NCBI GenBank assembly: GCA_964016885.1
Contig: OZ024743.1
Location: 286,874,001-286,938,000, forward strand
DNA length: 64,000 nt
Source: Eledone cirrhosa
Taxonomy: Eukaryota
Direction of reading: 5' to 3'
Positions 11,851 to 58,079 of this stretch are shown in pieces; positions within the stretch are counted from its first letter, which is position 1; each line of letters opens with the position of its first letter. Below the pieces are notes generated by a model that made no database searches, had not been told where the DNA came from, and worked only from the letters and a program-made list of their open reading frames with translations. A program made the translations under genes and the position numbers.

Positions 11851-14689
11851 ATGTATATATATAGATATGTGTGTGTGTGTATATATATAAAAATATGAAA
11901 GGGTAAGGTATTGTCTAGACACATGTATCCACGCTATGCGTGTTTGTAAGAATTATGCAGGTGCAATGGTATAAGAAGATCTGAGAGAAAAAAAATATAT
12001 ATATATTATAGAATGTCTCCTTCTTTTTCTAAGATAGTAGGTAGAAATTAGATAGTGATTTAATTGCTATTTCTAGCAAACTGAGTGACCATGTAGAAGA
12101 TATTTTGTTGAATAATTCTCTCTCTAAATTGTAGATATTTCCCTCTACATCAGAACACATTAATATAACATATTGCGTTCTTACTTTATTGACTGTAGTA
12201 AACACAGGCTACCAGGAGTGTTGTTACATTCAATTATCATAGGCATACGCTCTCCTTCCAATTTATAGTTATGATAGTAATTGAATATAATTAGTAGCAT
12301 TTAAGCAGACTACGTAGGTTAGCAAGTCAGTAAAAGCAAAAATATGTAGTATATTTAAATGATAAGAAGTTCAGAAAGCCAATACAGTGGAGATAGAAAT
12401 ATAAAGGTGGTACTAGGGTAATATATCTCATCATGATATTTTAAGGTAAATATTTTGTTTTCAAATGAATGTAGAAAAAATGATAAAACAATGCATTCTG
12501 CTCTGATGTTGTGTGTGTGTGGAGCAGTCATAAAAGCTACTTCATGAAGCTCTGTTCTATTGTCCATTTCTAGTATATTCAGTATATTAAAGTGTCCTGA
12601 TGTAAAGGAAAACACATAACATTTTGAACAGAATTTTTCATTGGAAAAAGATGCCATTCTTTACTGAAAAGCTTGACATAAAGTCTAGAATATTTCTCGC
12701 CTTATAATATACTAAAATTGTATCTTTTGCTTTTACTGTAAAGTCATGTTAGGATTTGAAATCAATACAGCAGGCTAATGAAGCACTCAACAATTATACA
12801 GTGCTGCCACTGTTTAGCAGTGTTATTTTGTACGCTCTATTGTCTATATATAGCTAGGTGGACTGACCCAATAGTGGCCAAATATCTTTGTCTTGGACAT
12901 TATGTGATGGGATATGAATTGTCAACCATTCTACTTGTGACCAACACTATCAACTTCATCAATGAGAGATAGCTGATATGTTCATCTTGCATTTTCTACT
13001 CTCAGTCTGGGGCCTTTCCTTTACAGATGGTCTCAAATAGAATACTTTTGATCATATTTCTGCTCAATCAGGGCTGACTTTGGGCTAAACAACAGCAATT
13101 CTATCAACTCAGTGAACCATTACTATATGCTTATTTAAAGTATAATTCTATTGGAATATTCCCAAAGCACCATGTCGATATTTAAAAATTTTGTTTACAT
13201 TTATTCATTTATTGTACCATAAAAATGTATTTCCCTGTAGCAAGGTCTTTTACTCTATAGTTCTTTATTTTTTAGTTCTTTGTGTGGTTTTAAATCAATA
13301 CAGCTCTTGCCAGTAAATATATTCATTTTATAAAGATGTATTGGAAAAGTGAAGCAAAAAGAAAAAATGACCCTCCCCCCCTCTAAAAAATAGAAAATAG
13401 AAAATGAAGAAAATTATTGAAATTGCTGGTTAAGACAGGAACAAATATATTTTTTCATTATAATGGATACAAAAATATATTTGGCCAAGATATAATGCTC
13501 CAAAGGTTGATTAATGCACGAGAGAAATGACGGACTATTCGTGTAGATTGAATTGTAAGCAAGGGAAGAGGACAGAGAGAAAAAGAATGAGAAAGAAAAG
13601 AAAGAGAGGGGAAAAAAGATGAGAGAGAGAAAAGAAAGAGGGGAAAGAAAAAAGGAGAGAGAGAACAGAAGAGGAGGAAAAGAAAAGAAAGATAGAGAGA
13701 AAAGAGAGGCGAGAAAGAAAAGAAAGAGAGAGAAAAGAAGGATGAGAGAGGGTTAGGGCTGGAACAATTCTTTCATAAAGTGGTTCTGAGATGTTATGTG
13801 CAAACCTGAACCATAACCTACAGCAAGTTGTAGTTTGTGTGTATGGGAGGGGAGGGGGATATTGGGAGGTTCAATGTAAATGATTAGCAGATTAAGTGAT
13901 AAGAAAATGTAAAAGGAGTGGGGTGGGGAAAGGCAACAGTAGTGAAGGGTTAATAGCAGATGATGAAGATGATGATAAGGATAAGGATGATAAGTGCGAT
14001 GATGTTCAAAACCAAGTAGATGAAAAAAAATGATGATTTTTATTTTGATAATAATAATTGTCTCTACTTTAGGCACATGACCAACAATTTTAGGGGAGGG
14101 GAAAGTCAATTAAATTGACACCAGTGCATTACTGGTGCTTTATTTTATCGACCCTGTAAGAATGAAAGGCAAAGCTTAAACTCAGTGGGATTTAAGCTAA
14201 GGACGTAAAGGGCCATAACTTTATACCACAAAGTATGTTGTCCAACACTATCAATACTGCCAATTTCTAATTTAAGAAAATAGGCCAGCAATTTAAGGAA
14301 GAGAAAATTCAATTATATCAACCCCCAATATTTGACCAGTACTTTATTTTATTGATCTCAGAAAGGTGAAAAACAAAGTTGACCTTCTGAGTCAACTTTG
14401 CTAATACAGAAAAAGAAAGCAGCATAAATCAGAGGAAAGGGAGGAAAGAGAAAGGACTACTAGATAAAGGAAGAAAGAAAGGGCATGGGGAGAGGGTGAC
14501 AGACTCTACACCTAGGTCAGAGTGGTGTTTTGGCTGTGCCCCAGGGACAAAATGGCAAAGCCATTTCTGCAGACAATGGCCAGCAACACCCGCTGCAATG
14601 GCCACTCTACTTTGTGGGATCCTTCCCCAAACAGGCTGCTATTGATCCAATTTTATAGAGGAGGACAGCTATCCAGGGTTCACAAGTTC

Positions 14690-41282: not shown

Positions 41283-44200
41283 TGTGTGCACATGTACACC
41301 CCACACCCCTCACAATAATGAATGTATGAATAAATAAATGGATAATTAAATGAATCCATGGCAGCCAGTGGTTGGGGTGCTGGTGATGAGAGATTGCAAC
41401 AGTGGGAGGGTAAGAAGTGGTATAGGGCGGGGTGGGGGTAGCTAAATAAATGTCAGTAAGAATTATTGCTGAGAGATAAGATGGATGAAAATAGAATGAA
41501 AATATTTGGAGAGAGTGAGGTGGGTGGGGTAAGGAGAGAAGGAGAGAAGGAGAGAAAAAGAGAGATTGAATGAGAGAAAGAAAGGGAGAGGGGAGGTGGC
41601 ATGGCAGACACAGGAACAAAGGCAACCCATACCCAGAAAAGAGAAACATTGTTAGCAACCATTAGTGGAAAACAAACTTAAGCATTAAAAAAACAACAAC
41701 AAACACACAAATAGGTATACAAAAACACACACAAACATTATTCTCATCTGCTCATATATACACCTTCACACAGAGTAAATGATACACATTTCACTTATAT
41801 TAAGAATATTCCTATAAATTTATTGTCAATTTTCATTTCATTCATAAAAAGGCAAAGGAATGATAACAATAAAAAGCGATTGAGAGCTTTTAATAACCAC
41901 ACATGTTCTCATTGGTTAATATCACCTGCTGATGTGTGGTTATAGCTGTGCACTGATGAAACCCAGGTCAGGGTTGGGGAGAACCATGATTAATCCATTG
42001 ATAAACATTCTATCTAGGAGTTAAGTCACTAAAATTGTTTTATAGCAAGGGTCAAAATACTTTCTTATATGGCATGCATGGCATGGTCCTGTAACTCCTG
42101 AGGGAGTCGTTGGGGCGCCGTATTGACAAACAGCATTTCTAGGGCATTATTTAAACCTGGTGGAGCCCATCTACTCTCCAGGTCTGAATACAGCAGATTT
42201 CTTCCTGAAAAGGAGAGAGAGAGAATCGACCCCAGTACTAGACTGGTACTTTTTTTATTGACCTTGAATGGCTGAAAGGCAAAGTTGACCTCGGTGGGAT
42301 TTGAACTCAGAGAGCAGAGAGTTGGAATGAATACCTCAAAGCATTCTATCGAACATCATAACATCCCAATTCGCCACCTACTTTCTTATACACATATATT
42401 TAATTCATTGATTCATATGCATTGCACAATATTTTGTAATTTTATTCATATGTAATATACTATATATGTTGAGAAACCCCAGTGATCAGGACCTGTGGAA
42501 AAGGCAAACCCAGGAAGTCATGGGGTGAGGTTGTGAAGACCAACCTTAAAAAACTAACCCTCACAAAAGAAATGAAAAAGGACCAACAGCGAAGGCTGGT
42601 GCAATGTTGTGCTGGTGAAGACAGCATATTATGTGGCCTGACATCCCAGTGTCCCTCCCACCTTCCACTAGCACTCCCTAATAGTATACAATGTAACCTT
42701 AATCATCCCAGTGTCCTCTCTTCCTCCTTAGTTGCTTAGCACTTCCTAGCAGCTATCCTCACCATCACTCATTAGTTGCTTCCCCCTCAAAAGTCTCTAG
42801 ATTCCCTCATTATTGCTACTCTAGTAGCCACATTCCATATTGCCCCCCTCCACTATCTCTCCCTAGTAGCTATCCTTACCATTACTGCACCTCCCACTCC
42901 ACTTATGCTCTCTCCTGTATGTATTCATTCCTTTGCTGCTGTACCTCCACCTAAAACCTTTAGGTACTCTCACTATCACACCCTAGTAGCTACTCTCTTC
43001 ACAAATATGCCCCCCCCTATCACTCCTTAGCTATTTTTTCTATCACTACCCCCCCCCCCGGCATTGGTTACTGCCACCCCACCCTAGCATTAATTACCAA
43101 AAATCCACTCCCCCACTCCACCTCTTCAGTGTTCTCATCACTCTGTCAAATCACACCACACTGGCCATAACTTCATACTTATCCCCATCCTAACGTTTCT
43201 CCCCACCCCCAACAGGTGGTTGGCTACCGGGGGGGGGGGGGGGGCATGCCTATAAAAAATACTGAGAGAACCCTTCATTTGTGTCACAATACATAAGCTT
43301 CTCTAGTGTTAGTGATCTACAGGATAAATGCATCCAGTACATGCTGTAATGTGGTTGGTGATAGGAAGGGCATCCAGCCATAGAAAACTTGCCAAATAAA
43401 ATGTCGGGAAGACCCTTCAATAGCACCAATAGCACCATGACAACCTTATATATACAAATTTGAAATGTGTGCATCCAACAGCAAATAACCATATTAATAG
43501 TTGAGAAAATTGGGCAAAGCAACCCAGAAGATGGAAAAGGTGGGCATCCACTATTTTCTGATTTTGGGAGTTACTTTGATTTTTCTCAACTACTATTATC
43601 GTCATTTACTTTAGAATGCACACATCTCAAATTTTCCAAATGCCTCTTAAGCCAACTGCTTATTATATATGATATATATGTATATTTATGTATGGTATGT
43701 ATATGAATTTCTGTATTCATGTAAGTTTTCATATATATATATGTATATATGTATATATGTATATATGGATGTGTGTGTATATATTTTTCGCCAACAAACC
43801 ACGTGTGGACATGGACGGGGGGGGGGGGGGGGAACAAATCACTACATCCCTTAGGGATCGCAGTAAGTACTCCACAAAACATATAAACAATATACACACA
43901 GATTTATATACAGATATATACCATATGCATATACACACACGTGAAAAGAAACCACACTATTTCGGTATGAGACACTATACCGGTCAATCTTACGTATGTA
44001 GTGACCTACATTCCGCGGGCTCACATACATTCTTTGTGCGTGATTTGGCTCAGCTCAGCCAATCAACGCCAGTAGAAGAGGATGTATCCCTACGCGTCCT
44101 GGGGGGAGAAATTCCCCGCGAAGATTTGAAGAATCTTTCTCTCGCACCAGGAACTTCGAACCTGCAACACGTACATGTGACGGTGAGATTTTGCACCTTA

Positions 44201-44396
44201 GCCTGCCGGCTTTCCGGCACAATGACACATTCCCTTTTGTAACCTCATTTTATGTGTAACTTCAACCATACAAGTTAACATACATTATTTGTGCTACAAC
44301 AAAAATAAACATACATTTCATCTCTAATTTCTGCTGTTGACATCATTATTATGTTACTCGTGTCTCAATAACATTTATACACCATGCTGCTAAAAG

Positions 44397-44414
44397 TGGT
44401 GACCCCGACGTGAT
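44397..44414 (+). promoter_or_regulatory. Primer binding site complementary to tRNA-Trp 3' end (mirror at ~47046-47063 -)
   Basis: TGGTGACCCCGACGTGAT is the reverse complement of the metazoan tRNA-Trp 3' end AUCACGUCGGGGUCACCA. Confidence 0.85.
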
Positions 44415-45756
44415 GAATATTTTCAGTTCAAAATATTCCTTTTGAAATGAGATTAAAATTGGCAGTGTATGTATAAACAAATTTACGCCACGAGGAAATT
44501 TCAAAACGGCTACCACCAAGTACCAGCCATCAGCAGCAACACATGACTAACTATTAACCAACACCAGGGAACGGCTTGTAACTTTACCGACGCAACCACC
44601 ATACCTTCTGTCTCGTTACCACAAGGACTCGAGAAATTAAGACATTAGTCTTCTCACCATTATGGCGTCAGACGTGGCTGCCATATTGGTGACTCTAGGT
44701 TCTTCAACGCTCGACTTCGACTCTACAGAAGATTCATTGTGACTTTGCTTTAACAACAACAACTCTACTAGCTCCCTAGTAAGAGCGATCCCAAAGAAAA
44801 GAAAAGCGAACTTTTTGTTAAAAGAAACAATTCTTTCCTTCTTCCTTTTTTTTTCAGGCATTTATTTTTTAAAAACTGTATTATATGGAAATTCATTTTT
44901 TTTCTATCATTGTATACATGACTGCATCATTTTCTTTATCATTGTATATATGACTGCACCCACACATTTATTTGCTGTTTTACATGCCTGCATATGCACA
45001 CATTTCTTTGTCACCTACCAACATGTTGTTCTTAGTATATGTTCTTCAAACGTAATATTCTGAGAGATCCCTTTTCACCTGGTTGAGGTGCCGTCACATG
45101 CTAGCGACTCATAGAGCTTAATTCACCTGGATTAAGACAGGCACCGCAACACGAGAATGCTAATTGCAGCTGAACTCAAACAGTTTCGCATCTCGTTGCA
45201 CACTCATCGTCCATAACAACCTCCATCTTGTTACCTTACCCGACTCACTGGGAAAACAACAAATAGAACTGGACTTGTCAGCATTTCCACCACTTCTGTG
45301 GATTCGCCCGAATTATGGAATTTACACTGCAACCCACCTACAGATTCAACTTGCTCTTTTCTTTTCAAAGCAACTAGCCATTTTTTCCTGACTCCCTAGC
45401 ACATTCGGCAATACACCTGGGAAGCCAACATTTTCTCGCCTACCCATCATCTTCTTGCCAGCACTGGTAAACTACCATAATAGCTTCATCCACAGCTACT
45501 GGTACAACACTTACCATTAACATTTAATGCAAGAACAGCAACTTCGCCCATGTCAGACTTTATCCGTTTTCTGTTAGACCTTTGGTGGTCACGTATAAAC
45601 TACAAAACAGATAGTCATTTGACACAGCGGCTCAACACGGCCCTGAGCGCCTCATTTTGTTTCTTGCATTCATCCTTCTGCTCAATTATTTTTTCACTGA
45701 TGTGCTCTTTCAGCATTTGTTCTTGCTGATTCAATAATCTGTATCGACTTCCGTCT

Positions 45757-45768
45757 AGAAGGGGAGTA
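45757..45768 (+). promoter_or_regulatory. Polypurine tract preceding the 3' LTR start
   Basis: agaaggggagta immediately before tTGTAGTGACC. Confidence 0.75.
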
Positions 45769-47176
45769 TTGTAGTGACCTACATTCCGCGGGCTCACATA
45801 CAAAATGAGGCGCTAAGGGCCGTGTTGAGCCGCTGTGTCAAATGACTAACTGTTTTGTAGTTTATACGTGACCACCAAAGGTCTAACAGAAAACGGATAA
45901 AGTCTGACATGGGCGAAGTTGCTGTTCTTGCATTAAATGTTAATGGTAAGTGTTGTACCAGTAGCTGTGGATGAAGCTATTATGGTAGTTTACCAGTGCT
46001 GGCAAGAAGATGATGGGTAGGCGAGAAAATGTTGGCCTCTCAGGTGTATTGCCGAATGTGCTAGGGAGTCAGGAAAAAATGGCTGGTTGCTTTGAAAAGA
46101 AAAGAGCAAGTTGAATCTGTAGGTGGGTTGCAGTGTAAATTCCATAATTCGGGCGAATCCACAGAAGTGGTGGAAATGCTGACAAGTCCAGTTCTATTTG
46201 TTGTTTTCCCAGTGAGTCGGGTAAGGTAACAAGATGGAGGTTGTTATGGACGATGAGTGTGCAACGAGATGCGAAACTGTTTGAGTTCAGCTGCAATTAG
46301 CATTCTCGTGTTGCGGTGCCTGTCTTAATCCAGGTGAATTAAGCTCTATGAGTCGCTAGTATGTGGCGGCACCTCAACCAGGTGAAAAGAGATCTCTCAG
46401 AATATTACGTTTGAAGAACATATACTAAGAACAACATGTTGGTAGGTGACAAAGAAATGTGTGCATATGCAGGCATGTAAAACAGCAAATAAATGTGTGG
46501 GTGCAGTCATATATACAATGATAAAGAAAATGATGCAGTCATGTATACAATGATAGAAAAAAAATGAATTTCCATATAATACAGTTTTTAAAAAATAAAT
46601 GCCTGAAAAAAAAAGGAAGAAGGAAAGAATTGTTTCTCTTAACAAAAAGTTCACTTTTCTTTTCTTTGGGATCGCTCTTACTAGAGAGCTAGTAGAGTTG
46701 TTGTTGTTAAAGCAAAGTCACAATGAATCTTCTGTAGAGTCGAAGTCGAGCGTTGAAGAACCTAGAATCACCAATATGGCAGCCACGTCTGACGCCATAA
46801 TGGCGAGAAGACTAATGTCTTAATTTCTCGAGTCCTTGTGGTAACGAGACAGAAGGTATGGTGGTTGCGTCGGTAAAGTTACAAGCCGTTCCCTGGTGTT
46901 GGTTAATAGTTAGTCATGTGTTGCTGCTGATGGCTGGTACTTGGTGGTAGCCGTTTTGAAATTTCCTCGTGGCGTAAATTTGTTTATACATACACTGCCA
47001 ATTTTAATTTTATTTCAAAAGGAATATTTTGAACTAAAAATATTCATCACGTCGGGGTCACCAATTTAGCAGCATGGATTATAAATGTTATTGCGACACG
47101 AGTAACATAATAATGACGTCAACAGCATAAATTAGAGATGAAATGTATGTTTATTTTTGTTGTAGCACAAATAATG

Positions 47177-47386
47177 GTTTCTTATATAGGCACAAGGACA
47201 GTAATTTGGGTAAGGGGAAAGTCGATTAAATCGACCCCAGTGCGTGACTGGTACTTTATTTTATCGACCCCATACGGATGAAAGGCAAAGTTAACCTCAG
47301 CGGGATTTGAGCTCAGATCATAAAGAGCCGTAACTCTACGTTGCAAAGCATGGCGTCCGACTCTCTACCGATACTGCCAATCCACC
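47177..47386 (-). mobile_element. Full-length tRNA-derived SINE with 19-bp TSD, inserted in the right LTR
   Basis: TSD tgttgtagcacaaataatg at 47158-47176 and 47387-47405; absent from the left LTR. Confidence 0.9.
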
Positions 47387-48039
47387 TGTTGTAGCACAAA
47401 TAATGTTGGTTAACTTGTATGGTTGAAGTTACACATAAAATGAGGTTACAAAAGGGAATGTGCCATTGTGCCGGAAAGCCGGCAGGCTAAGGTGCAAAAT
47501 CTCACCGTCACATGTTGTACGTGTTGGTGGTTCGAAGTTCCTGGTGCGAGAGAAAGATTCTTCAAATCTTCGTGGGGAATTTCTCCCCCAGAACGCGTAG
47601 GGATACATCCTCTTCCACTGGCGTTGATTGGCTGAGCTGAGCCAAATCACGCACGGAGAATGTATGTGAGCCCGCGGAATGTAGGTCACTACACGTACAT
47701 TGGTAAAATATCTCTGAACATTGACTTCGCTTCTAACCCACATACACCTTTTAATTATATATATATATATACTAGCAGCTGAAAGTTAATAATTTGAAAA
47801 ATATTATTGAAAGTTTATTATAAAGAAGCAGTATCAGGAAAAAAAACGTTATTTTGCTGTTAATAAACAGTTGCCTTCTACAGTACGTTTCATTTAACTT
47901 ACGCAGCATATTTATTTATTTACATGCACAGACTCTTCTGTACACACACAACATTTAGGAAAACGGAAACAAAATACACAAAAAAACAAAACAAAAAACA
48001 CATTTTATTTCTATCGTAATCAAGTGCGCTAAACCTATA

Positions 48040-49295
48040 TTGTTTACATTCTGTGTTTTTCTACGGATGGGTAGAAATAACAAAATTGCCATGGTGATAT
48101 CCATCGATGAAGTATGCGACAAAACTGGTCGATGTTCCAAAATAGAACATTGCCCAGAAAACCACATCTGCCATATTTGTACGGAACCCGAAAACTCGTT
48201 TCGTAATCGCTGGGTCGAATGTGGAACCTGTCACATCTCTGTCTGCCTTCAATGCGCCACAGGCTTCTGGAGGATCCCAGGCCCAAAAAAGAGACATCAT
48301 AATGCTATGATGGATAGAATATGGGAGATGGTCCAGCTAAAATCCTGGTGCTTTCAGTGCCTGGCCTGTGTGCCTGCCTCCACTAATGTTATTGAAAACA
48401 ACAACAACAACAAAAACCGATGACTGTATCTTCCTCTACCATTGTTACTGAACAACGGCAAAAACCTATGACACTGGCTTCTACTGCTATTCCTGTGGGA
48501 GAACATCAGAAACAACAACAACCCATGTCTTCCGCTTCCAGTACATCTCGACACCAACAACCTGCGACTGTGTCTTCCCCTACCATTCCCGTGGAGGAAC
48601 ATCATCATCACCAACAACAACAACAACAACAGCAACAACAGCAACAACAACAACAACAACCGACCAGTACAGATTTTGCAGAATTGCAACTAATGATTTC
48701 TGCTTTAAGAAGGGAAGTAACAGGAATAAAGGCAAGCATTCGGGTAGGACCCCACAATGAGGGGTCTTATCGGAATGCCTTGCTAAAGAATCTCCCTGTA
48801 CCTCTTGCCGTATCTGGCCTCACTGAGAAGACTGCGGAATCTGCTACCCATGAAGTAATTGCCATTGGGGTACCAGAGGACAAGGCTGATCTTCAGGCAT
48901 TTGCTGCCAGCTCAGCCAAAGACCTAGGCTGTGTTCCCCCAAAGATTGCTCTCCGCCTTGGTCGACCTGGTCCAAAACCCAGACTCATCAGGCTGTCTTT
49001 TTCGGACCCCGCTGAGGCAATCTCATACCATCTGGCCTCTGTTAAAGCTGGGCGTGAAAATTGGATTACCTTCCGAACACGCCCAGGCCTACCACCCCAT
49101 GTACATCCAAAGCTCCGTGCTGCAGCTTCCTTGAATCGGAACTCAGCACATGAAAGTTTTAGTCTGCGTCATGATGGGCAGATCTGGAGGTTTGTTAAGG
49201 CTGGTGAAACGTGGAAGAGAGATACCAGCTGGTCTGAGTGTGATCTACCCACAATAACTGGCAATGAAAAAACTGCTACAACTCTGGGAAACTAA
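48040..49295 (+). pseudogene. CR1 ORF1 (PHD-like finger, polyQ, coiled coil), frameshifted at ~48400
   Basis: CHIC...WVECGTC..VCLQC...WCFQC; RLGRPGPKPRLIRLSF. Confidence 0.75.
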
Positions 49296-49351
49296 ACCAG
49301 AACAACCTGCCACCCTCTACACACCATCATAAACTGCGAGCAGGGTACAAA

Positions 49352-52112
49352 TTGTTGTCCTTAAATGCTCGCAGTTTATGCAACAAAATACATCTGTTTG
49401 AATCCTACGTCAGAAGCATCGACCCTGACTTCATCACAGTCACAGAAAGATGGGCACATTCCTTACTCTGTGATGGGGTTTTCAGCATTACTGGGTACAA
49501 CCTTTTCCGCAAGGATCGCATTAATCGCCGTGGTGGTGGTGTGATGGTCTACGTTCGTTCAAACTTTTCGGTAATTCCTTGCATTGATTTGAACGAATCA
49601 CAGGAAGAAGTTTTTTTCTGTGACATACGTATGACCATGTCAACACTTCTGCTTGGTGTTGTTTATCGTCCCCCAAACTACCATCAGGACACACAGCTTT
49701 GCGATATCCTCAGAGTTGCTGCCAAGAAAACAGCCACTTATGTGTTTATTGCAGGTGACTTCAATCATCCTGAGATCGATTGGGAAACCTTTCGTTGGCC
49801 ACAAGGTGCAAACGATTTCCTTGAACTAGTGCTGGACTCAAACTGGTCACAAGTAGTCACCTCTCCAACAAGAGGTGACAACACTTTGGACCTGATCTTC
49901 ACCACTACTCCTGAAGTGGTTATCAGTTGTACTACTGAGGAACCTCTAGGCGACTCTGATCATGCTATGATCATTGCCAATCTGGCACTTGAGGGCAGCA
50001 ACAAAAACCAGAGCCATCTCCAATCTGCTTGCTTTGATTGGAAGAAAGCGGATTGGAACTTGTACTGCACTGAGCTACAGCGCCCAAACTGGCATGAGAT
50101 GTATAACTCTAGAGATGTGAACACTATACTCCAGAGCACCCTGGACTCAATATGGATAGCGTGTGCAGCATCGGTGCCATGTAAACAGAAAAAAACCCAC
50201 CCCAAAAGTGCAATTTGGGAAACTTCAGCGGTCCGACTTGCCAGGAAAGAACGTCGGAACGCTGAACGGGAATATAAACTGCATAAATCAGATGCCAACA
50301 GAAAAAAGTGGAATAAATCTTCTAACCATCTCAAGCAAGTGACAAAGAAGGCAGTGCTTGAATTTGAACAGTGCATAGCAACCAATCCTGACAGTAAGGT
50401 GTTCTGGAAATATGTTCATTCAAAGCAGAGACCTCACTCTCCAGTTGGTCCTCTTCGCAATCCCCACACAAGCCAGATCACTGACGATCCCAAAGAATGC
50501 GCAGAACTCATTGCTGAGTGCTATGCAAGTATTTTTACTGTTGAAAACCAGAATGTACCATCTCCACCATCTCTAACATCAAATTCCATAACAACTATGG
50601 AATTTACACCTGCAATGTTGCGACGTCACCTTAAGAATAAGCGCAACTATGCCTCCCCTGGTCTTGATGGTGTTACATACCTGCTTCTCAAACGTGGCGG
50701 GTATTTCCTTTTGCGCCAGCTTTCTTTCTTCTTTCAATACTGTCTCAACAATGGTGCTACTCCGGAGCAGTGGAAAACTGCCAGTGTCATTCCCCTGTTC
50801 AAAAAGGGCAACCGCATGTCACCTGTCAACTATCGTCCAGTCAGTCTTACTAGCTGTATGGCCAAACTGATGGAATCCTGTGTCAGAGAAACACTTTGGA
50901 ACTTCTGGAGCTCTCACAGCCTCATCCGGCCCTCACAGTTTGGATTTATCCCTAACTCCAGCTGCTGTGATCAGCTTATCGAGTTCCTTGAAGACATCAC
51001 CCGGATCACTGACAGCGGCTCATGGGTGGATGTTGTTTACCTTGACTAAGGCTTTTAATTCTGTGCCACACAAAAGACTTATCGCAAAACTCTCTGCAAT
51101 GGGTGTGAGGGATGATCTTTTCGACTGGTTGAAATCCTTCATTCTCAGCCGAAAAGAAGTAGTCACGGTTCTAGGACAGCATTCTTCACCATATGAGATG
51201 TCATCTGGTGTACCACAGGGATCTGTTCTTGGTCCCCTTTTGTTTGTGGCATATATTAATGACATAGATGCCAACTTACAGAATGCCACGGTACTGAAAT
51301 ATGCAGATGACATCAAGCTGTACCTTGAAATCAAAAGGACTGATCCTGAAATCTACAACTCTTTCCTACAATCAGACCTGGACACAATGCAGCAATGGAT
51401 CACAGACTGGCAACTGAAGCTGGCTGTGGACAAGTGTACCACCATGCATTTTGGGAGGAAAAATCCAGCGTCCACATACTCCCTCCACAACACTGATATC
51501 AAGAAGTCCTCTTGTGAACGTGACCTGGGCATTACTGTCAGCAGCGATTTGCGTTGGACAAAGCATGTCTCTAAGATTGTCAAGAAGGCCGAGGGTGTCT
51601 TGGCATCACTCAGCAAGACCTTTGTTAGCCGCTCTCCAACCATCTATTTAAAACTGTATACAGCTATGGTACGACCACACTTGGAATTCGCATCATCAGT
51701 CTGGAACCCCTATCTTGCTCAGAACATTGACCTCCTGGAAACTGTTCAGAGACGTGCAACCAAGCGCATACCCTCCATCAGACACCTACCATACTCTGAA
51801 CGCCTTGCTTCCCTGGGCATGGATTCATTGAAGCTCCGACGTCTGGCAATGGACTTGGTAAATACCCACAAAGTTATTAACCATCTCGCCAATTGCAACC
51901 CTGAGCACCTTTTTGATCTCCATGTGTCTAACACATGTGGACATGCCTACAAAATCAGAAAACAGCACAGCTCCCATGACTTTCGTAGACATTTTTTCGC
52001 ACTCAGAGTTGCTGAAGCATGGAACAAACTGCCTGCGTCAGTTGTTAGCTGCCGAGACACTGCATCCTTTAAGACACTCATGCTTCCCGAAATACGCCAA
52101 AACTACACCTGA
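49352..52112 (+). pseudogene. CR1 ORF2 (APE endonuclease + RT), single frameshift at ~51045
   Basis: LNARSL, GDFN, LDLIF, SDH; DVVYLD/TKAFNSVPH; SGVPQGSVLGPLLF; YADD; RPHLEFASSVWNP; WNKLP. Confidence 0.92.
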
Positions 52113-52440: not shown

Positions 52441-52668
52441 GGTCTAAGCGGACGTATTTTGCTCGCTCACAGTAAGTCGCTTTATTTGCCTGTTTAAATT
52501 ATTTGTTGTTAAATATTTCTTGTTGTGTAAGGGATATAAGCCCTTAGACTTTGCCCCGTGAAGGGGAAAGTATAATATTTGGGCCTTTTGGCCCAAATAT
52601 TTCAACTTTTTTTACATGTTAAAAAATTTATGAAGAAAAAAAAACATGGCTGAGCCACGCCCCCCCCA

Positions 52669-54624
52669 GTGATATGTCGGCTGTCGTGCGACAACGACGT
52701 AGAAGTTGAGAGGAGCGCTACAGCGAAATTAACACACATTGATAACACAAATACCACCACAAACAAGGTAAACAAAGACACCAATGATACCAATAAGAAC
52801 TCTAATTTGAAAAAAAATGACAGTAACAACGACAACGAAAATACAGATAACAAAAAAAAAAATAACAAATACAACAACAATATCAACACCACTAACATGA
52901 AAACAAATAGCGACAATACCAACAGCAACAATACCAACTGCACCGAGAACAACGGTGGCAGCAAAAACAACAATGATAACAGCGACAGTGCTAACAACAA
53001 CACCAACAAGAACAACGTCAACAACACCCCCAACGAAAACAAGACCACTTTCGCTGCGGCAGCAGCAAAAAAGAGGCCATGCTTCAACATGGACCTCTCA
53101 AACAAAGATGGAAAGTTGGCCCAGGCATGGAAGCTCATCAAGCAAGAGCAAACTTGGGCCAACTTAACTGTCCTGGTAGAAGCTATTGAGGCAGTGGAGC
53201 GCAAAACGGTGCATTATAGATGCATCTCAGCACAGACCAAAAGGGCAGCGTTAATCCCACAAGAAGATATCGAAGTCGCGCTGAGGTGCATCAGAGAAGA
53301 CACCCAGTATATAGAGAGGGGCAGACAGTACGGCACCATTTCGGTGTTGTTCAAATCAGAAGCCCTCGCGATGAAACACGCCATGACTCCATGCAAAACC
53401 AGCAAGGTCATAATGTACCCCTCCCACATGGGAAAAAGAACGGTCCGTCTCCGCATTCCCAGAATCCCACCAGGACTTGACATGTGGTGGCTTCTGGGAT
53501 GTGTGATTGTGGAGGGGACGGATACAGTCCCTATAGAAGTGACCAGAACGGCCAGAGAGGACTGGTCCGGGGTTGACCTGGAGATCCTTCTCCAGATCAG
53601 GCCCGAGAATGTGAAGACAATCAAGGACCATATCCGCCTGCAGAATGGGACGGTCATGCACATTATGACCGAAGGCAAAAGGCCGCAGTGTTTTGTTTGT
53701 GGGGAAAAAACCCATTTTCGAGCCTTCTGCCCTCAACTGCTGAAAGAGGCAAGGGGTCAAAAGGCTCCACTGCTGCCGACGCCGGGGCGAGGACCACAAC
53801 CAACACCTGCACTGGCAAAACCACCAACAACAACACCAATAGAAAAAACACCACCATCATTGACCACCCAGGGGGGAAACGAGGAAAGCTGTCAAATTCC
53901 CCCTCCCCACCAAAATACACACACCAATAAAACCTTAAACATACATACAAACACACTTACAGACACAGACCCCTCATCTACCAGTAGTGAAGATGAGGGA
54001 AATCCCAAATCCCCCAAAATACAAAAAAGGAAACACAAAAAGAAAAAAAAAACTCAACAAAGCACAAAAGCGCCCACAATAAAAAACGCAGACACCACCC
54101 ACGCAAACATCTCTCCAATAACACCAACATCAACACCACCATCACCATCACCAGAATCCCCCAATAGCAAACAACCTAAACAGACGCAAGAACAAATACA
54201 CACACAAACATCTGAAACCACAGACATCGCACTCACAACAAACACAGATACAACCGAAACAACACCACCAAAACCATCACCACCACAGCCACGCAAACAA
54301 ATAAAATCACACCAACAAATCATACAAAACTTCGTGCTCGTCAGGAGGGCCAACAAGGAACTGATGGCCCTCGTAGCACGAAGTGAAAATATACAAAAAG
54401 AGGAGGAAATGTTTAAATCGAGCACATTTCGCGTGCCGAAAGATTTGGTTCTGGTGCGAATGTCGCTCGACATATTCAAAGAAATACGAGACAGCTTTCC
54501 TCGGGACGTGGGAACCCCAAACGTAAAACCCACTTCAAAACTTTTAAAGGGGTTCCCAAAAGAAACCCCACTAACTATGGAGGTCGAACAACCCAACCTT
54601 CACAAGAGCCCGGAAGGTAAGTAA
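52669..54624 (+). CDS. Tx1 ORF1 (gag-like; Asn-rich N-terminus, CCHC knuckle, Pro/Thr-rich C-half)
   Basis: 651-aa open frame; CFVCGEKTHFRAFC; true start uncertain. Confidence 0.8.
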   Translation: MICRLSCDNDVEVERSATAKLTHIDNTNTTTNKVNKDTNDTNKNSNLKKNDSNNDNENTDNKKKNNKYNNNINTTNMKTNSDNTNSNNTNCTENNGGSKNNNDNSDSANNNTNKNNVNNTPNENKTTFAAAAAKKRPCFNMDLSNKDGKLAQAWKLIKQEQTWANLTVLVEAIEAVERKTVHYRCISAQTKRAALIPQEDIEVALRCIREDTQYIERGRQYGTISVLFKSEALAMKHAMTPCKTSKVIMYPSHMGKRTVRLRIPRIPPGLDMWWLLGCVIVEGTDTVPIEVTRTAREDWSGVDLEILLQIRPENVKTIKDHIRLQNGTVMHIMTEGKRPQCFVCGEKTHFRAFCPQLLKEARGQKAPLLPTPGRGPQPTPALAKPPTTTPIEKTPPSLTTQGGNEESCQIPPPHQNTHTNKTLNIHTNTLTDTDPSSTSSEDEGNPKSPKIQKRKHKKKKKTQQSTKAPTIKNADTTHANISPITPTSTPPSPSPESPNSKQPKQTQEQIHTQTSETTDIALTTNTDTTETTPPKPSPPQPRKQIKSHQQIIQNFVLVRRANKELMALVARSENIQKEEEMFKSSTFRVPKDLVLVRMSLDIFKEIRDSFPRDVGTPNVKPTSKLLKGFPKETPLTMEVEQPNLHKSPEGK

Positions 54625-54657
54625 ACCTTCCTCTCTCTCTCTGTTTAACCTGCCAAC

Positions 54658-57600
54658 ATGGCCGTATTAAGAGTAGGATGTTTAAATGTTCGAGGCCTGG
54701 GATCGTCCTAGAAGCAGGGTCACCTGCTCAACGACCTCAGGCCTATAGAAATGGATGTAATTGCAGTCAGCGAGACCAGGATTTCCGACACGCACGCACT
54801 AGCCCCCATTTTCGATGACTATCAGATCTTTGCATCTGTTAGCCAGCCGGGAATGGCAGGCGGGGTGGCAGTGCTGTTTAGGAAAGGCCTGGATCTCGAG
54901 GTAAGGTCGATCTTCCGGGACCCGGACGGGAAGTTGGTGGTCCAGGACGTGAACAATAATGAAGGTGGTGCCTTTAGACTGGTGGCCGTCTATGCTCCTA
55001 GTGGGGCAGGATGGCTGGACTTCTTTAGACGCCTGGAAGCCTTTCTGGGTACGTCTCGCCCTTTACTGTTAGCGGGGGACTGGAACGGCATCTTAGACGC
55101 ACGCTGGGACTGTGTGGGAGTATCTGATAGGAGCGGGGGGTGCAAAAGCCTCAAGAACCTGATCAGCCAATTCCAACTGTCTGACAGGTACCGACTAGAT
55201 TTCCCTAATGCGCCAGTGTGGACCTGGGCTAACCGCACAGGGTCATCTAGATCGTATATAGACAGGATATTCATTAGGAAAATAGACAGAAATAGTGTAA
55301 GCTGTCCACGTTTTAAAACGGTCGCCTATTCAGATCACAAGTTTGTGATCTGTATGGTCGACCTAGATAAGACGCGTAGGTTAGGACCTGGTTACTGGAA
55401 GCTAAACATGTCATTTCCGGCACGTAAGGCTTACAGGGACCAGGTCAACAATTTAGTTAAGAAAAAGTTGACAGGGGGAGTCGTCAACAATAGATGGTGG
55501 GGGCTCTCAAAAGAGAGATTAGAGTAATGTCGATAGAGTTTAGCAAAGAAGTAGCATTAGAGAAAAATAGAAAGGAGGGGGAGTTGGTAGATAAGTTAGA
55601 CGAGGCTATTGGTAGTGGCATTGCAACTGATGTTCTAGTGGCGAGAATGGCATTAGACCATTTCTTCAATGCGAAACACGAAGGTTGCATTGTCAGAGCT
55701 AAGGCGCGTGCTCTGAGAAACGAGGGAACCAAAGCTGTTCGATGGGCCTGCGTGGCAGAGGCGCAGCGTGGTAATAAAACCACGATTCGGTCTTTGACGG
55801 ACCGAGACGGGCACGAGCTGAGCGATTCCAAGAGGATGTGTGAGGCCTTTCGCCAACATTTTGCTCGGTTGTTCGGGGGAAGTGGCGGGTCAGAGATGGT
55901 GGCGGACTTCAGTCCCTACCTCGATGGCTTTCCGCAACTCTCGACGGCTGACGCTGGGCGCTGCGAAAGGCCAATTACTTCAGCCGAGATTCAGGATGCC
56001 CTTGTAGGCTGCATGAGGCGCAAGTCACCTGGTTTGGATGGTCTGCCCTACGAGCATTACGTAAATATGCCAGACTTGTTCTCCAATCTCCCCGAAGCGC
56101 TCTACTGTAACTGGCAGCAAAACGGGAGTATTCCCAGTTCTGTGAGCCGGGGCGTAGTGACGCTGATAAGGAAAGACGAGAACAAGAGGGACACATTAGA
56201 CAATTTCAGGCCCATAACTCTGCTCAACACAGAGTTTAAGATTTTGGCCAGGGTGTTAGTGAAGAGGTTGGCGCTTGTCGTCGGGGATTTGGTTGGGGAG
56301 ACGCAAACTTGCGGAATCCCAACCAGGTCCATACACGGCAACCTCCACCTAATGCGATACATCATAGAGAGGGTAGGGTGTAAACCTGGCTTCGGTGGGA
56401 CTCTGATCAATTTAGATCAATCGAAAGCATTCGATAGGATCGACCTTCGGTATCTGGAGGCTGTCCTCAAGGCGGTTGGCTTCGGCCCCATCTTCAGAAG
56501 CTGGATCGCTGCAATGCACAGCGGCACCTGCTTAATGGTCAAAATTAATGGCCACCTCTCGGAACCGTTTCAGGTCTCCCGATCGGTCCGTCAAGGGTGC
56601 CCTCTCTCCTCCCTTCTGTACATATTGACTCTCGAGCCTTTACTGCAGAAGCTGGAACTGTTGCAGGGCATCCTGCTCGAACTGGGACGCGGAAAGGCTG
56701 TGTCGGCTTATGCGGACGACATCACCGTGATGGTGTCGGACACCTCAGAAATCGAGGTGGTCGGCACCTTATTGGAGGAATATGAAAGGTTGACGGGAGC
56801 AAAACTTAACCCGGAAAAGTCAGTGGGCTTGCAACTCGGCACCTGGAGAGGCAAGTCCATGCCGTCCAACAGCGTCGTTAGGCGCTGGACGGACGGACCG
56901 GTAAAGTTGCTAGGGGTTTGGTTTGGGCCAGACCTCCAGGTGGATACGAATTGGGACGAGGTGACGGGCAGGGTAGTCAGTCTCACCCAGAAATGGGCTG
57001 GGATGAAGCTATCACTGAAAGGTCGGGTGGAGGTGGCGAACGCGTACATCGCGTCCGTCATCTACTACCGTCTGACTGTCGTCCCTTGCCCCCGTTCGCG
57101 CCTCACCATCTTGGAGCGGCTCCTCTTCAAATACTTGTGGAGGGGTCAGGTTCCGCTGGTGAGGCGGTCCATCTGCTGCCAGCACCCTCTACGTGGAGGG
57201 CTGGGCATGCCATGGCTAATGATGTGCAGGCACGCGCTGAGGCTGCGGCATCTCCAGATATTCTGCCTAAACGGTGAACAGGTGTGGTCGCCGTTTGTCA
57301 GACGCGCCTTTCCGCAGCTCGTTTCTTTGACTGAGTTGCAGTCCTGGGTCAAGAAGAGACCGAGACTGGGTGACTGGCATCTGGAATGTTGCCAGGCACT
57401 CACTGCCCTCTACCAGGCGGGCAATGCGGTCAGTGGAACTTCCACTCTCGAGTTCTATAGAGGATTAGTGGTGGGCAAGTGCGACGACGCACTCGGAAAG
57501 GCTCTGGGAGTCAACGAAGTCGAACTAACCAGTCTGTACCGGTTGACTTTCGAGCCAGGGACGATGGATAATTTCCAAAAATCCCTCGCTTGGCAGTGCT

Positions 57601-58079
57601 ACCGGGGGACACTGCCGGTTCGACATAAGCTCTACAGGCACGGAAGTGCTGTCAGACGGACCTGCCCAAGATGCGCGCAGAGCGACGAAACCGTTCTGCA
57701 CGCACTCGTCCAGTGTTCGTGCATTATTGACTTGTGGAGTTATGTTGAACAGCTGTTGTCGCATGTAGAACAGATCCGGCTATCGGCCGAGTCCATAGTG
57801 AAGATCGACCCGCCGCCTTCTTTTGGCCAGGAAGGGCAGGCAATTTTCCTCTGTCTGGTGGCAGTAGCGAAAGAGGTTATATGGTGGACGAGGTTGAAAG
57901 GACTGAAGACAGACACTTTTCTCTTCGGCCAATTCCTCATCAACTTTTTCAAGTTTCACTTGGAAAGGAAGGTGAGGGTGGAGAGAGAAGTGCTGCCCCT
58001 CAGTACATTTGCTGAAAGGTGGGTGAATGTGGCGAGAATGGCCCGTGTGAGTGGGCCTACTCTGGTCATGCGGCTGTAG
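54658..58079 (+). pseudogene. Tx1 ORF2 (APE + RT + C-terminal CCHC), stop at 54709 and frameshift at ~55500
   Basis: LNVRGL, GDWN, IDRIF, SDH, GPGYWKLN; LDQSKAFDR, VRQGCPLS, YADD; CPRC...ETVLHALVQC. Confidence 0.92.

Follow-up and report, generated by a model that had tools for sequence, protein, structure and literature searches.

An inverted dimer of a CsRn1-type Gypsy element within a single target duplication, and its like-end relatives, in Eledone cirrhosa

How does a retroelement with inverted long terminal repeats (LTRs) come to sit inside one target-site duplication, when integration is usually drawn as the insertion of one cDNA through one U3 (unique 3') and one U5 (unique 5') end? 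The question is raised by a 3.7-kb unit at positions 43993-47697 of the window, our term for the whole 64,000-nt stretch of Eledone cirrhosa DNA that was analysed (assembly GCA_964016885.1, contig OZ024743.1, positions 286,874,001 to 286,938,000 of the forward strand). In the unit, two copies of a non-autonomous CsRn1-type Gypsy element form an inverted dimer; the LTRs are inverted and both outward ends are U3, in place of the canonical direct LTRs with one U3 and one U5 end. We consider it rather probable, from sequence comparison, that the unit arose when the natural ends of two closely related cDNA intermediates were joined and a like end of each was used for integration, and that the arms then converted each other.

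The anatomy in the original prediction (LTR, tRNA-Trp primer-binding site (PBS), polypurine tract (PPT), 33 nt of the 3' LTR, a jump into the reverse complement, and CGTA on both sides) was reproduced in its coordinates. The left CGTA (43993-43996) is followed on the plus strand by the LTR of arm A (43997-44394, TG...AA by family LTR comparison), its U3 end outward, and, after a 2-nt spacer, by a tRNA-Trp-type PBS (44397-44414) that fits the CsRn1-type pattern in the accessible text of PMC2582038. A 1.36-kb non-coding interior (44415-45769) with the PPT at 45757-45766 leads into the first 33 nt of the 3' LTR (45770-45802), and the junction lies at 45800-45802, 33 nt beyond the PPT. The minus-strand arm then begins with the arm B interior (45800-47045), which ends 109 nt short of the 3' LTR start, and continues through the PBS (47046-47063, from arm comparison), a 1-nt spacer and the LTR (47065-47693, from family LTR comparison), whose U3 end also points outward and whose U5 alleles are common to another subfamily, to the right CGTA (47694-47697, plus strand). 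Self-comparison of the arms defined the arm B interior and the palindrome's unpaired spacer of 139 nt (45661-45799, plus strand). The unit does read TG...CA, as first described, but normal family LTRs end TG...AA; the terminal CA appears because the outer end is an inverted U3 start. Overlooked in that description was a later SINE-like (short interspersed nuclear element-like) insert of 210 bp in arm B (47177-47386, plus strand), flanked by a 19-bp duplication (47158-47176 and 47387-47405). Since the arms are 13 LTR substitutions apart, with 16 more over 1263 nt of interior, and since the insert with its own duplication is present in arm B only, an assembly or library fold-back origin is unlikely; identical arms and a missing target duplication, the signature of such a chimera, are not what the unit displays.

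The insertion site was resolved by paralogues of the host repeat. The dimer lies about 210 nt inside a LINE (long interspersed nuclear element) copy at 43785-52109 with a frameshifted ORF2: the left part, from the LINE's 5' region, spans 43785-43992 (plus strand), and the element continues at 47698-52109 (plus strand) with an open reading frame (ORF) at 48396-49292 and endonuclease and reverse transcriptase (RT) in two frames across 49268-52109, where the ORFs match endonuclease and RVT_1. In 19 of 24 flank paralogues the left flank, a single CGTA and the right flank are joined with no bases gained or lost, and the remaining five belong to a variant subfamily. The same empty-site join occurs in two contigs of the public run X6, which are possibly paralogous. 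In four public runs, which appear to come from relatives, no contig bridges the window junction; such a gap proves nothing. The CGTA pair is a genuine 4-bp target duplication, supporting the proposed single integration through two U3 ends; a clean empty site means that the unit arrived either by a single clean event of the integrase type or by two events at the same 4 bp. The nominal probability that two target tetramers match by chance is 1 in 256, and such matches are likelier in low-complexity targets. Nested insertion via a 7-nt LTR word in the right flank was ruled out by the empty-site paralogues.

LTR and interior searches returned 2322 and 1436 family candidates, respectively, of which 40 were scored in each case, and the first 33 nt of U3 has 1241 exact matches in the genome. 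Ordinary copies are 2.2-kb non-coding elements with TG...AA ends and make 4-bp target duplications, exact in 21/26 copies and in 41/47 of a second sample, at many different tetramers. Family LTR ends are TGT...AAA, as in the CsRn1 lineage. A coding relative, L093 (LTRs 93% identical), carries the CX2HX9CX3C motif and the Pfam order RT-RNase H-integrase, and was the only one of six long copies scanned with this motif in the gag position. The accessible text of PMC2582038 places CsRn1, PwRn1 and AgCR in the CsRn1 lineage of Ty3/gypsy elements, and gives such elements a Trp PBS, duplications of 4 bp that show no target preference, ends of the form TGT...AAA and the CX2HX9CX3C motif. Our family is alike in its tRNA-Trp-type PBS, 4-bp duplications, LTR ends and the coding relative's motif and pol order, whereas the window unit differs in being non-coding, with inverted LTRs and two U3 ends. 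Judging by the shared LTRs, coding copies such as L093 may have mobilised the non-coding element. The interior segment 44498-44566 includes an NGYHQVP stretch that had been taken for an RT remnant; the segment is instead leader sequence, matching the 5' leader of the longer relatives L230 and L232 at 94-97%, and in L230 the leader lies about 1.5 kb upstream of the long ORF. Searches of the window interior gave no significant match in Pfam with three X-read frames (one unrelated weak match, E 0.37) or in tblastn (best E 0.35).

The family comprises several subfamilies (L002-L060, L093-L124, L229-L233) that have the first 150 nt of the LTR in common; elsewhere in the LTR, and in the PBS and the interior, they diverge. 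Haplotypes are strongly mosaic, and the coding relatives of about 5.3 kb have different PBS sequences. Tandem arrays with shared LTRs were seen at L058/L059, L093 and C1:431.64 Mb. The 2.2-kb element, with LTRs, PBS and PPT round a non-coding interior and some shared-LTR tandem arrays, resembles non-autonomous elements of the TRIM (terminal-repeat retrotransposon in miniature) or LARD (large retrotransposon derivative) type; the described forms of those have direct LTRs, unlike the window unit.

The window unit is not a solitary case. The first 100 listed U3 starts correspond to 80 loci on C1, 0-126 Mb, and three opposite-strand pairs within 8 kb were counted among them, against 0.2 expected. 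Each of the three proved to be a single unit with an exact duplication; L090 is U3-U3, and L091 and L092 are U5-U5. A further 100 loci without a listed partner were fetched, 40 and 47 from two other listings and 13 from the U3-start list (part of its singletons). Both orientations were present at five of these 100, and four are inverted units: L144 (U3-U3, the duplication matching in 3 of 4 bases), L145 (U5-U5, both ends kept, duplication absent), and L183 and L225 (U5-U5 type, one end lost). An opposite-strand match at L140 was rejected as unrelated to a dimer. With the window there are eight inverted units, three U3-U3 and five U5-U5; six keep both ends, with four exact duplications, one near match and one miss. 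This amounts to a few percent of loci, in a sample that is biased and incomplete. A preference for U3 ends on account of the U5 end being AA was discarded, U5-U5 units being at least as common. Two loci of other structure were also encountered. At L032 (G000:C2:207.42 Mb, locus positions 2913-3080) a direct-LTR element has hybrid LTRs, and inside it lies an inverted piece of U3 (nt 12-46) joined to a U5 end and to a second PBS; the arrangement looks like an inverted-dimer junction that was itself retrotransposed. L125 (G000:C28:8410500-8420400) contains two neighbours in opposite orientation with swapped target duplications, a sequence pattern that is the hallmark of inversion through recombination of the two elements.

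We examined the junctions of the eight units. In seven, one side is no more than 35 nt away from a landmark of reverse transcription (P about 2-8e-5, with the landmarks and the 35-nt width picked post hoc). The second arm of L090 consists of the LTR plus 16 of the 18 PBS nt, the extent of plus-strand strong-stop DNA. In L092, L183 and L225 the sequence restarts 10, 34 and 0 nt ahead of the PBS, at the point where an incomplete minus strand ends. L144 has a complete inner U5 end followed by the spacer and the first 3 PBS nt; this is as expected of a free cDNA end, and a cut tandem could look the same.

These junctions bear on the possibility of a double insertion, in which a second copy entered the first copy's duplicated target in reverse orientation and the unstable palindrome centre was deleted later. 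Such events have a precedent in Drosophila tandems, including an inverted Rover pair that retains a central target motif (PMC5932611, in its accessible part), and they would account for two templates. A central target copy, however, is present in none of the eight units, and a central deletion could hide one except at L144, where the intact inner U5 end is followed by PBS letters and not by target DNA. Nor was a direct LTR-target-LTR junction flagged in the 95 single-orientation loci of the 100 or visible in the listed U3-start spacings. The clustering of junctions at priming sites and the diversity of the family's target tetramers also speak against a double insertion, which we regard as improbable.

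The relationship between the two arms addresses the number of templates. As anticipated by the original prediction, the arms are closest to each other: their interiors diverge by 1.3%, against 2.1% for the nearest of 39 other copies, and their U3 haplotypes differ at 0 of 17 informative sites, against at least two in each of 68 other copies. Eight substitutions and a 5-bp deletion are common to the arms only. Two such arm-private markers, searched genome-wide, were found in the arms and in one 77% relative (L088), which has no bearing. From 44474 on, unpaired spacer included, the interior belongs to a single subfamily in both arms. By contrast, the two arms have different family alleles at LTR nt 346, 384 and 385, in the PBS spacer and at 44449/44451. 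Per nucleotide, the arms differ more in the LTR, with 11 events (10 substitutions plus one 1-nt indel) over 397 nt, than in the interior, with 14 over 1263 nt (P 0.015-0.03), whereas private changes in ordinary copies are about even (1.0% in LTRs, 0.9% in interiors); with shared alleles counted as local mutations, the two interiors come to about 1.0% and 1.5%. G45659, which pairs with the junction C45801, is found in 0 of 36 other copies. The private shared interior markers, the LTR-dense differences and the G45659 pairing together point to arm-to-arm conversion after insertion, over about 44474-45660. Part of the arm similarity looks like later conversion. The junction overlap at 45800-45802 now measures 3 nt; with G45659, which is private to the window unit, set back to the family state, it would be 1 nt.

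The original prediction explained the unit by a template switch just after the PPT on a single molecule. The position of the switch is borne out by the junction 33 nt past the PPT, but such a switch predicts identical arms, and the different family alleles in U5, PBS spacer and leader do not support it as proposed. The sister units do not fit it either: some join two U5 ends, their junctions lie elsewhere, and in two of them the arms differ in haplotype. At L091 the arms differ at six family-polymorphic LTR columns and also across the interior, and at L092 at 12 columns; each of these units has one or two private alleles common to both arms, which points to two templates plus conversion. The inner 5' LTR of the left element in L091 (4675-5217) is 99.6% identical to the 3' LTR of the right element (6168-6710) and separated from its own partner LTR by 11 substitutions and a deletion, a pattern of local conversion or mosaic origin.

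Single-molecule fold-back, the model of the original prediction, is an unlikely explanation of the window unit. Synthesis of the plus strand would stop 33 nt beyond the PPT, and the strand would prime on itself 139 nt upstream and be extended back as far as its own U3 start; the U5 and leader differences would come from later conversion by other copies. It draws strength from the identical U3 haplotype, the private substitutions and deletion common to the arms, the single-subfamily spacer and the 3-nt overlap, and patchy LTR discordance is common in ordinary copies. It requires two extra patches (U5 and spacer in arm B, 44449/44451 in arm A), however, and the tested private alleles were found in no source copy. 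In addition, the LTR differences outnumber the interior ones by density, the 3-nt overlap rests on a base absent from 36/36 other copies, and fold-back of one molecule cannot yield L091 or L092.

A chromosomal template switch at a replication fork or during repair, turning an ordinary TG...AA insertion into an inverted duplication by a return exactly at the element end, would likewise give one-template arms with the duplication kept, and L125 attests to rearrangement between inverted neighbours in this family. This route would need a base-exact return at the AA end, which is not complementary to the TG start, at several independent loci; it leaves the PBS-bounded arms unexplained, and inversions of the L125 type swap duplications rather than preserve them. 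We consider it very improbable.

The empty site, the 4-bp rule, the recurrence of both like-end classes and the intermediate-like junctions make the joining of two cDNAs the best reading. The two molecules, which probably came from a single particle or burst, would have been joined at stalled or free ends over a 0-3-nt overlap, in the window unit near their polypurine tracts, and integrase would have taken one like end from each. The arms would afterwards have converted each other over the interval given above, and the SINE-like element would have entered arm B. For the joining step we tentatively favour host end-joining after integrase had used one end of each molecule; an RT jump between two molecules before integration seems somewhat less likely. 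The sequence alone cannot separate these two routes.

Several observations weigh against the two-cDNA reading. At the window locus, the identical U3 haplotype and the single interior subfamily, spacer included, are what one template predicts. LTRs of one ordinary element often differ at family-polymorphic sites (13/26), and in a second sample the LTR pair was discordant in 7/23, two of them at 8-10 sites; because such discordance is frequent, the U5 patch suggests two templates here and does not prove them, and it could stem from later conversion by another copy. The 3-nt indel seen at LTR nt 176 is homoplastic and does not mark a parent. Among the sister units, L145 has no duplication despite both U5 ends, L144 matches in only three of four bases, the duplication of L090 sits in CA/TA-rich DNA, L183 and L225 are missing one end, and the arms of L090 and L225 are near enough for one template. 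No inverted pair occurred among 25 matches of a 102-nt pattern, and no new pair among the first 100 of 601 and the first 100 of 276 matches listed. An earlier version of our model, with whole LTRs from two parents, was narrowed to U5 and leader after the ordinary-LTR discordance and the U3 data. Ordinary-looking elements with LTRs that differ at polymorphic sites (L106, L123 and others) are candidates for U3-U5 two-molecule insertion or later conversion.

The mobility proposed for the unit, resembling that of terminal inverted repeat (TIR) or foldback transposons, found no support: with one mismatch allowed, the junction 22-mer occurs once in the 3.0-Gb genome, so this dimer form has not spread. 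The locus itself is a dead end and gives no indication of being copied, of function or of spread. Foldback and other TIR transposons, and DIRS elements with inverted LTRs, look similar in having long terminal inverted repeats. Here, in contrast to Foldback and TIR transposons, there is no sign of the unit moving whole, the arms consist of LTR, PBS and interior, and the duplication has the length of the Gypsy family's.

Other repeats were seen in and around the unit. The short repeat at 47177-47386, 42224-42311, 7946-8092, 14070-14385 and 9503-9584 of the window presumably resembles a cephalopod SINE. The SINE-like element of arm B is present in 11 of 68 LTR copies (window 47158-47405, L038, L043, L044, L052, L056-L060 and L090), in 10 of them at LTR nt 287-315, with varying length and often in one LTR of an element only; LTR nt ~290-310 is apparently an insertion hot spot, to judge from these positions. 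The LTR of L183 is broken off at the same motif. A second LINE lies downstream at 52654-57998.

Retroviral integrases in vitro can carry out two-donor concerted integration, pairing like ends of separate DNAs and making the correct duplication; here the product is heritable chromosomal DNA in which the free ends have been joined. Inverted LTR tandems are known and have been ascribed to double insertion (McGurk and Barbash 2018, PMC5932611). The accessible part of that paper describes LTR elements head-to-head or tail-to-tail at one site, as in our units, and its Rover pair keeps the target motif at the junction, whereas our junctions lie at cDNA landmarks. The accessible part of PMC12789967 gives the standard integration model only. 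Our literature search, with thin coverage of older and subscription papers and with supplements outside its scope, returned no account of recurrent like-end dimers in a single duplication. What appears to be new here is this recurrence of like-end inverted dimers within one target duplication, inverted LTR tandems as such being already known.

With both like-end classes and clean duplications occurring naturally, genomes alone suffice to test whether intasomes in vivo can pair ends of two molecules and at which intermediates reverse transcription comes to a halt. The units also show one way in which retrotransposons give rise to kilobase palindromes with conversion between the arms, and structure-based LTR finders that require direct LTRs would miss or split them. 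It is possible, and we put it forward tentatively, that in an animal germline a Gypsy integrase regularly pairs like ends of two different, often unfinished cDNAs, and that a few percent of the insertions of this family are two-molecule events. If this were true, fossil junctions would record reverse-transcription intermediates, and an unseen U3-U5 class would add to the shared-LTR tandems and to the 'ordinary' copies with mismatched LTRs, so that dating by LTR-LTR comparison would be biased.

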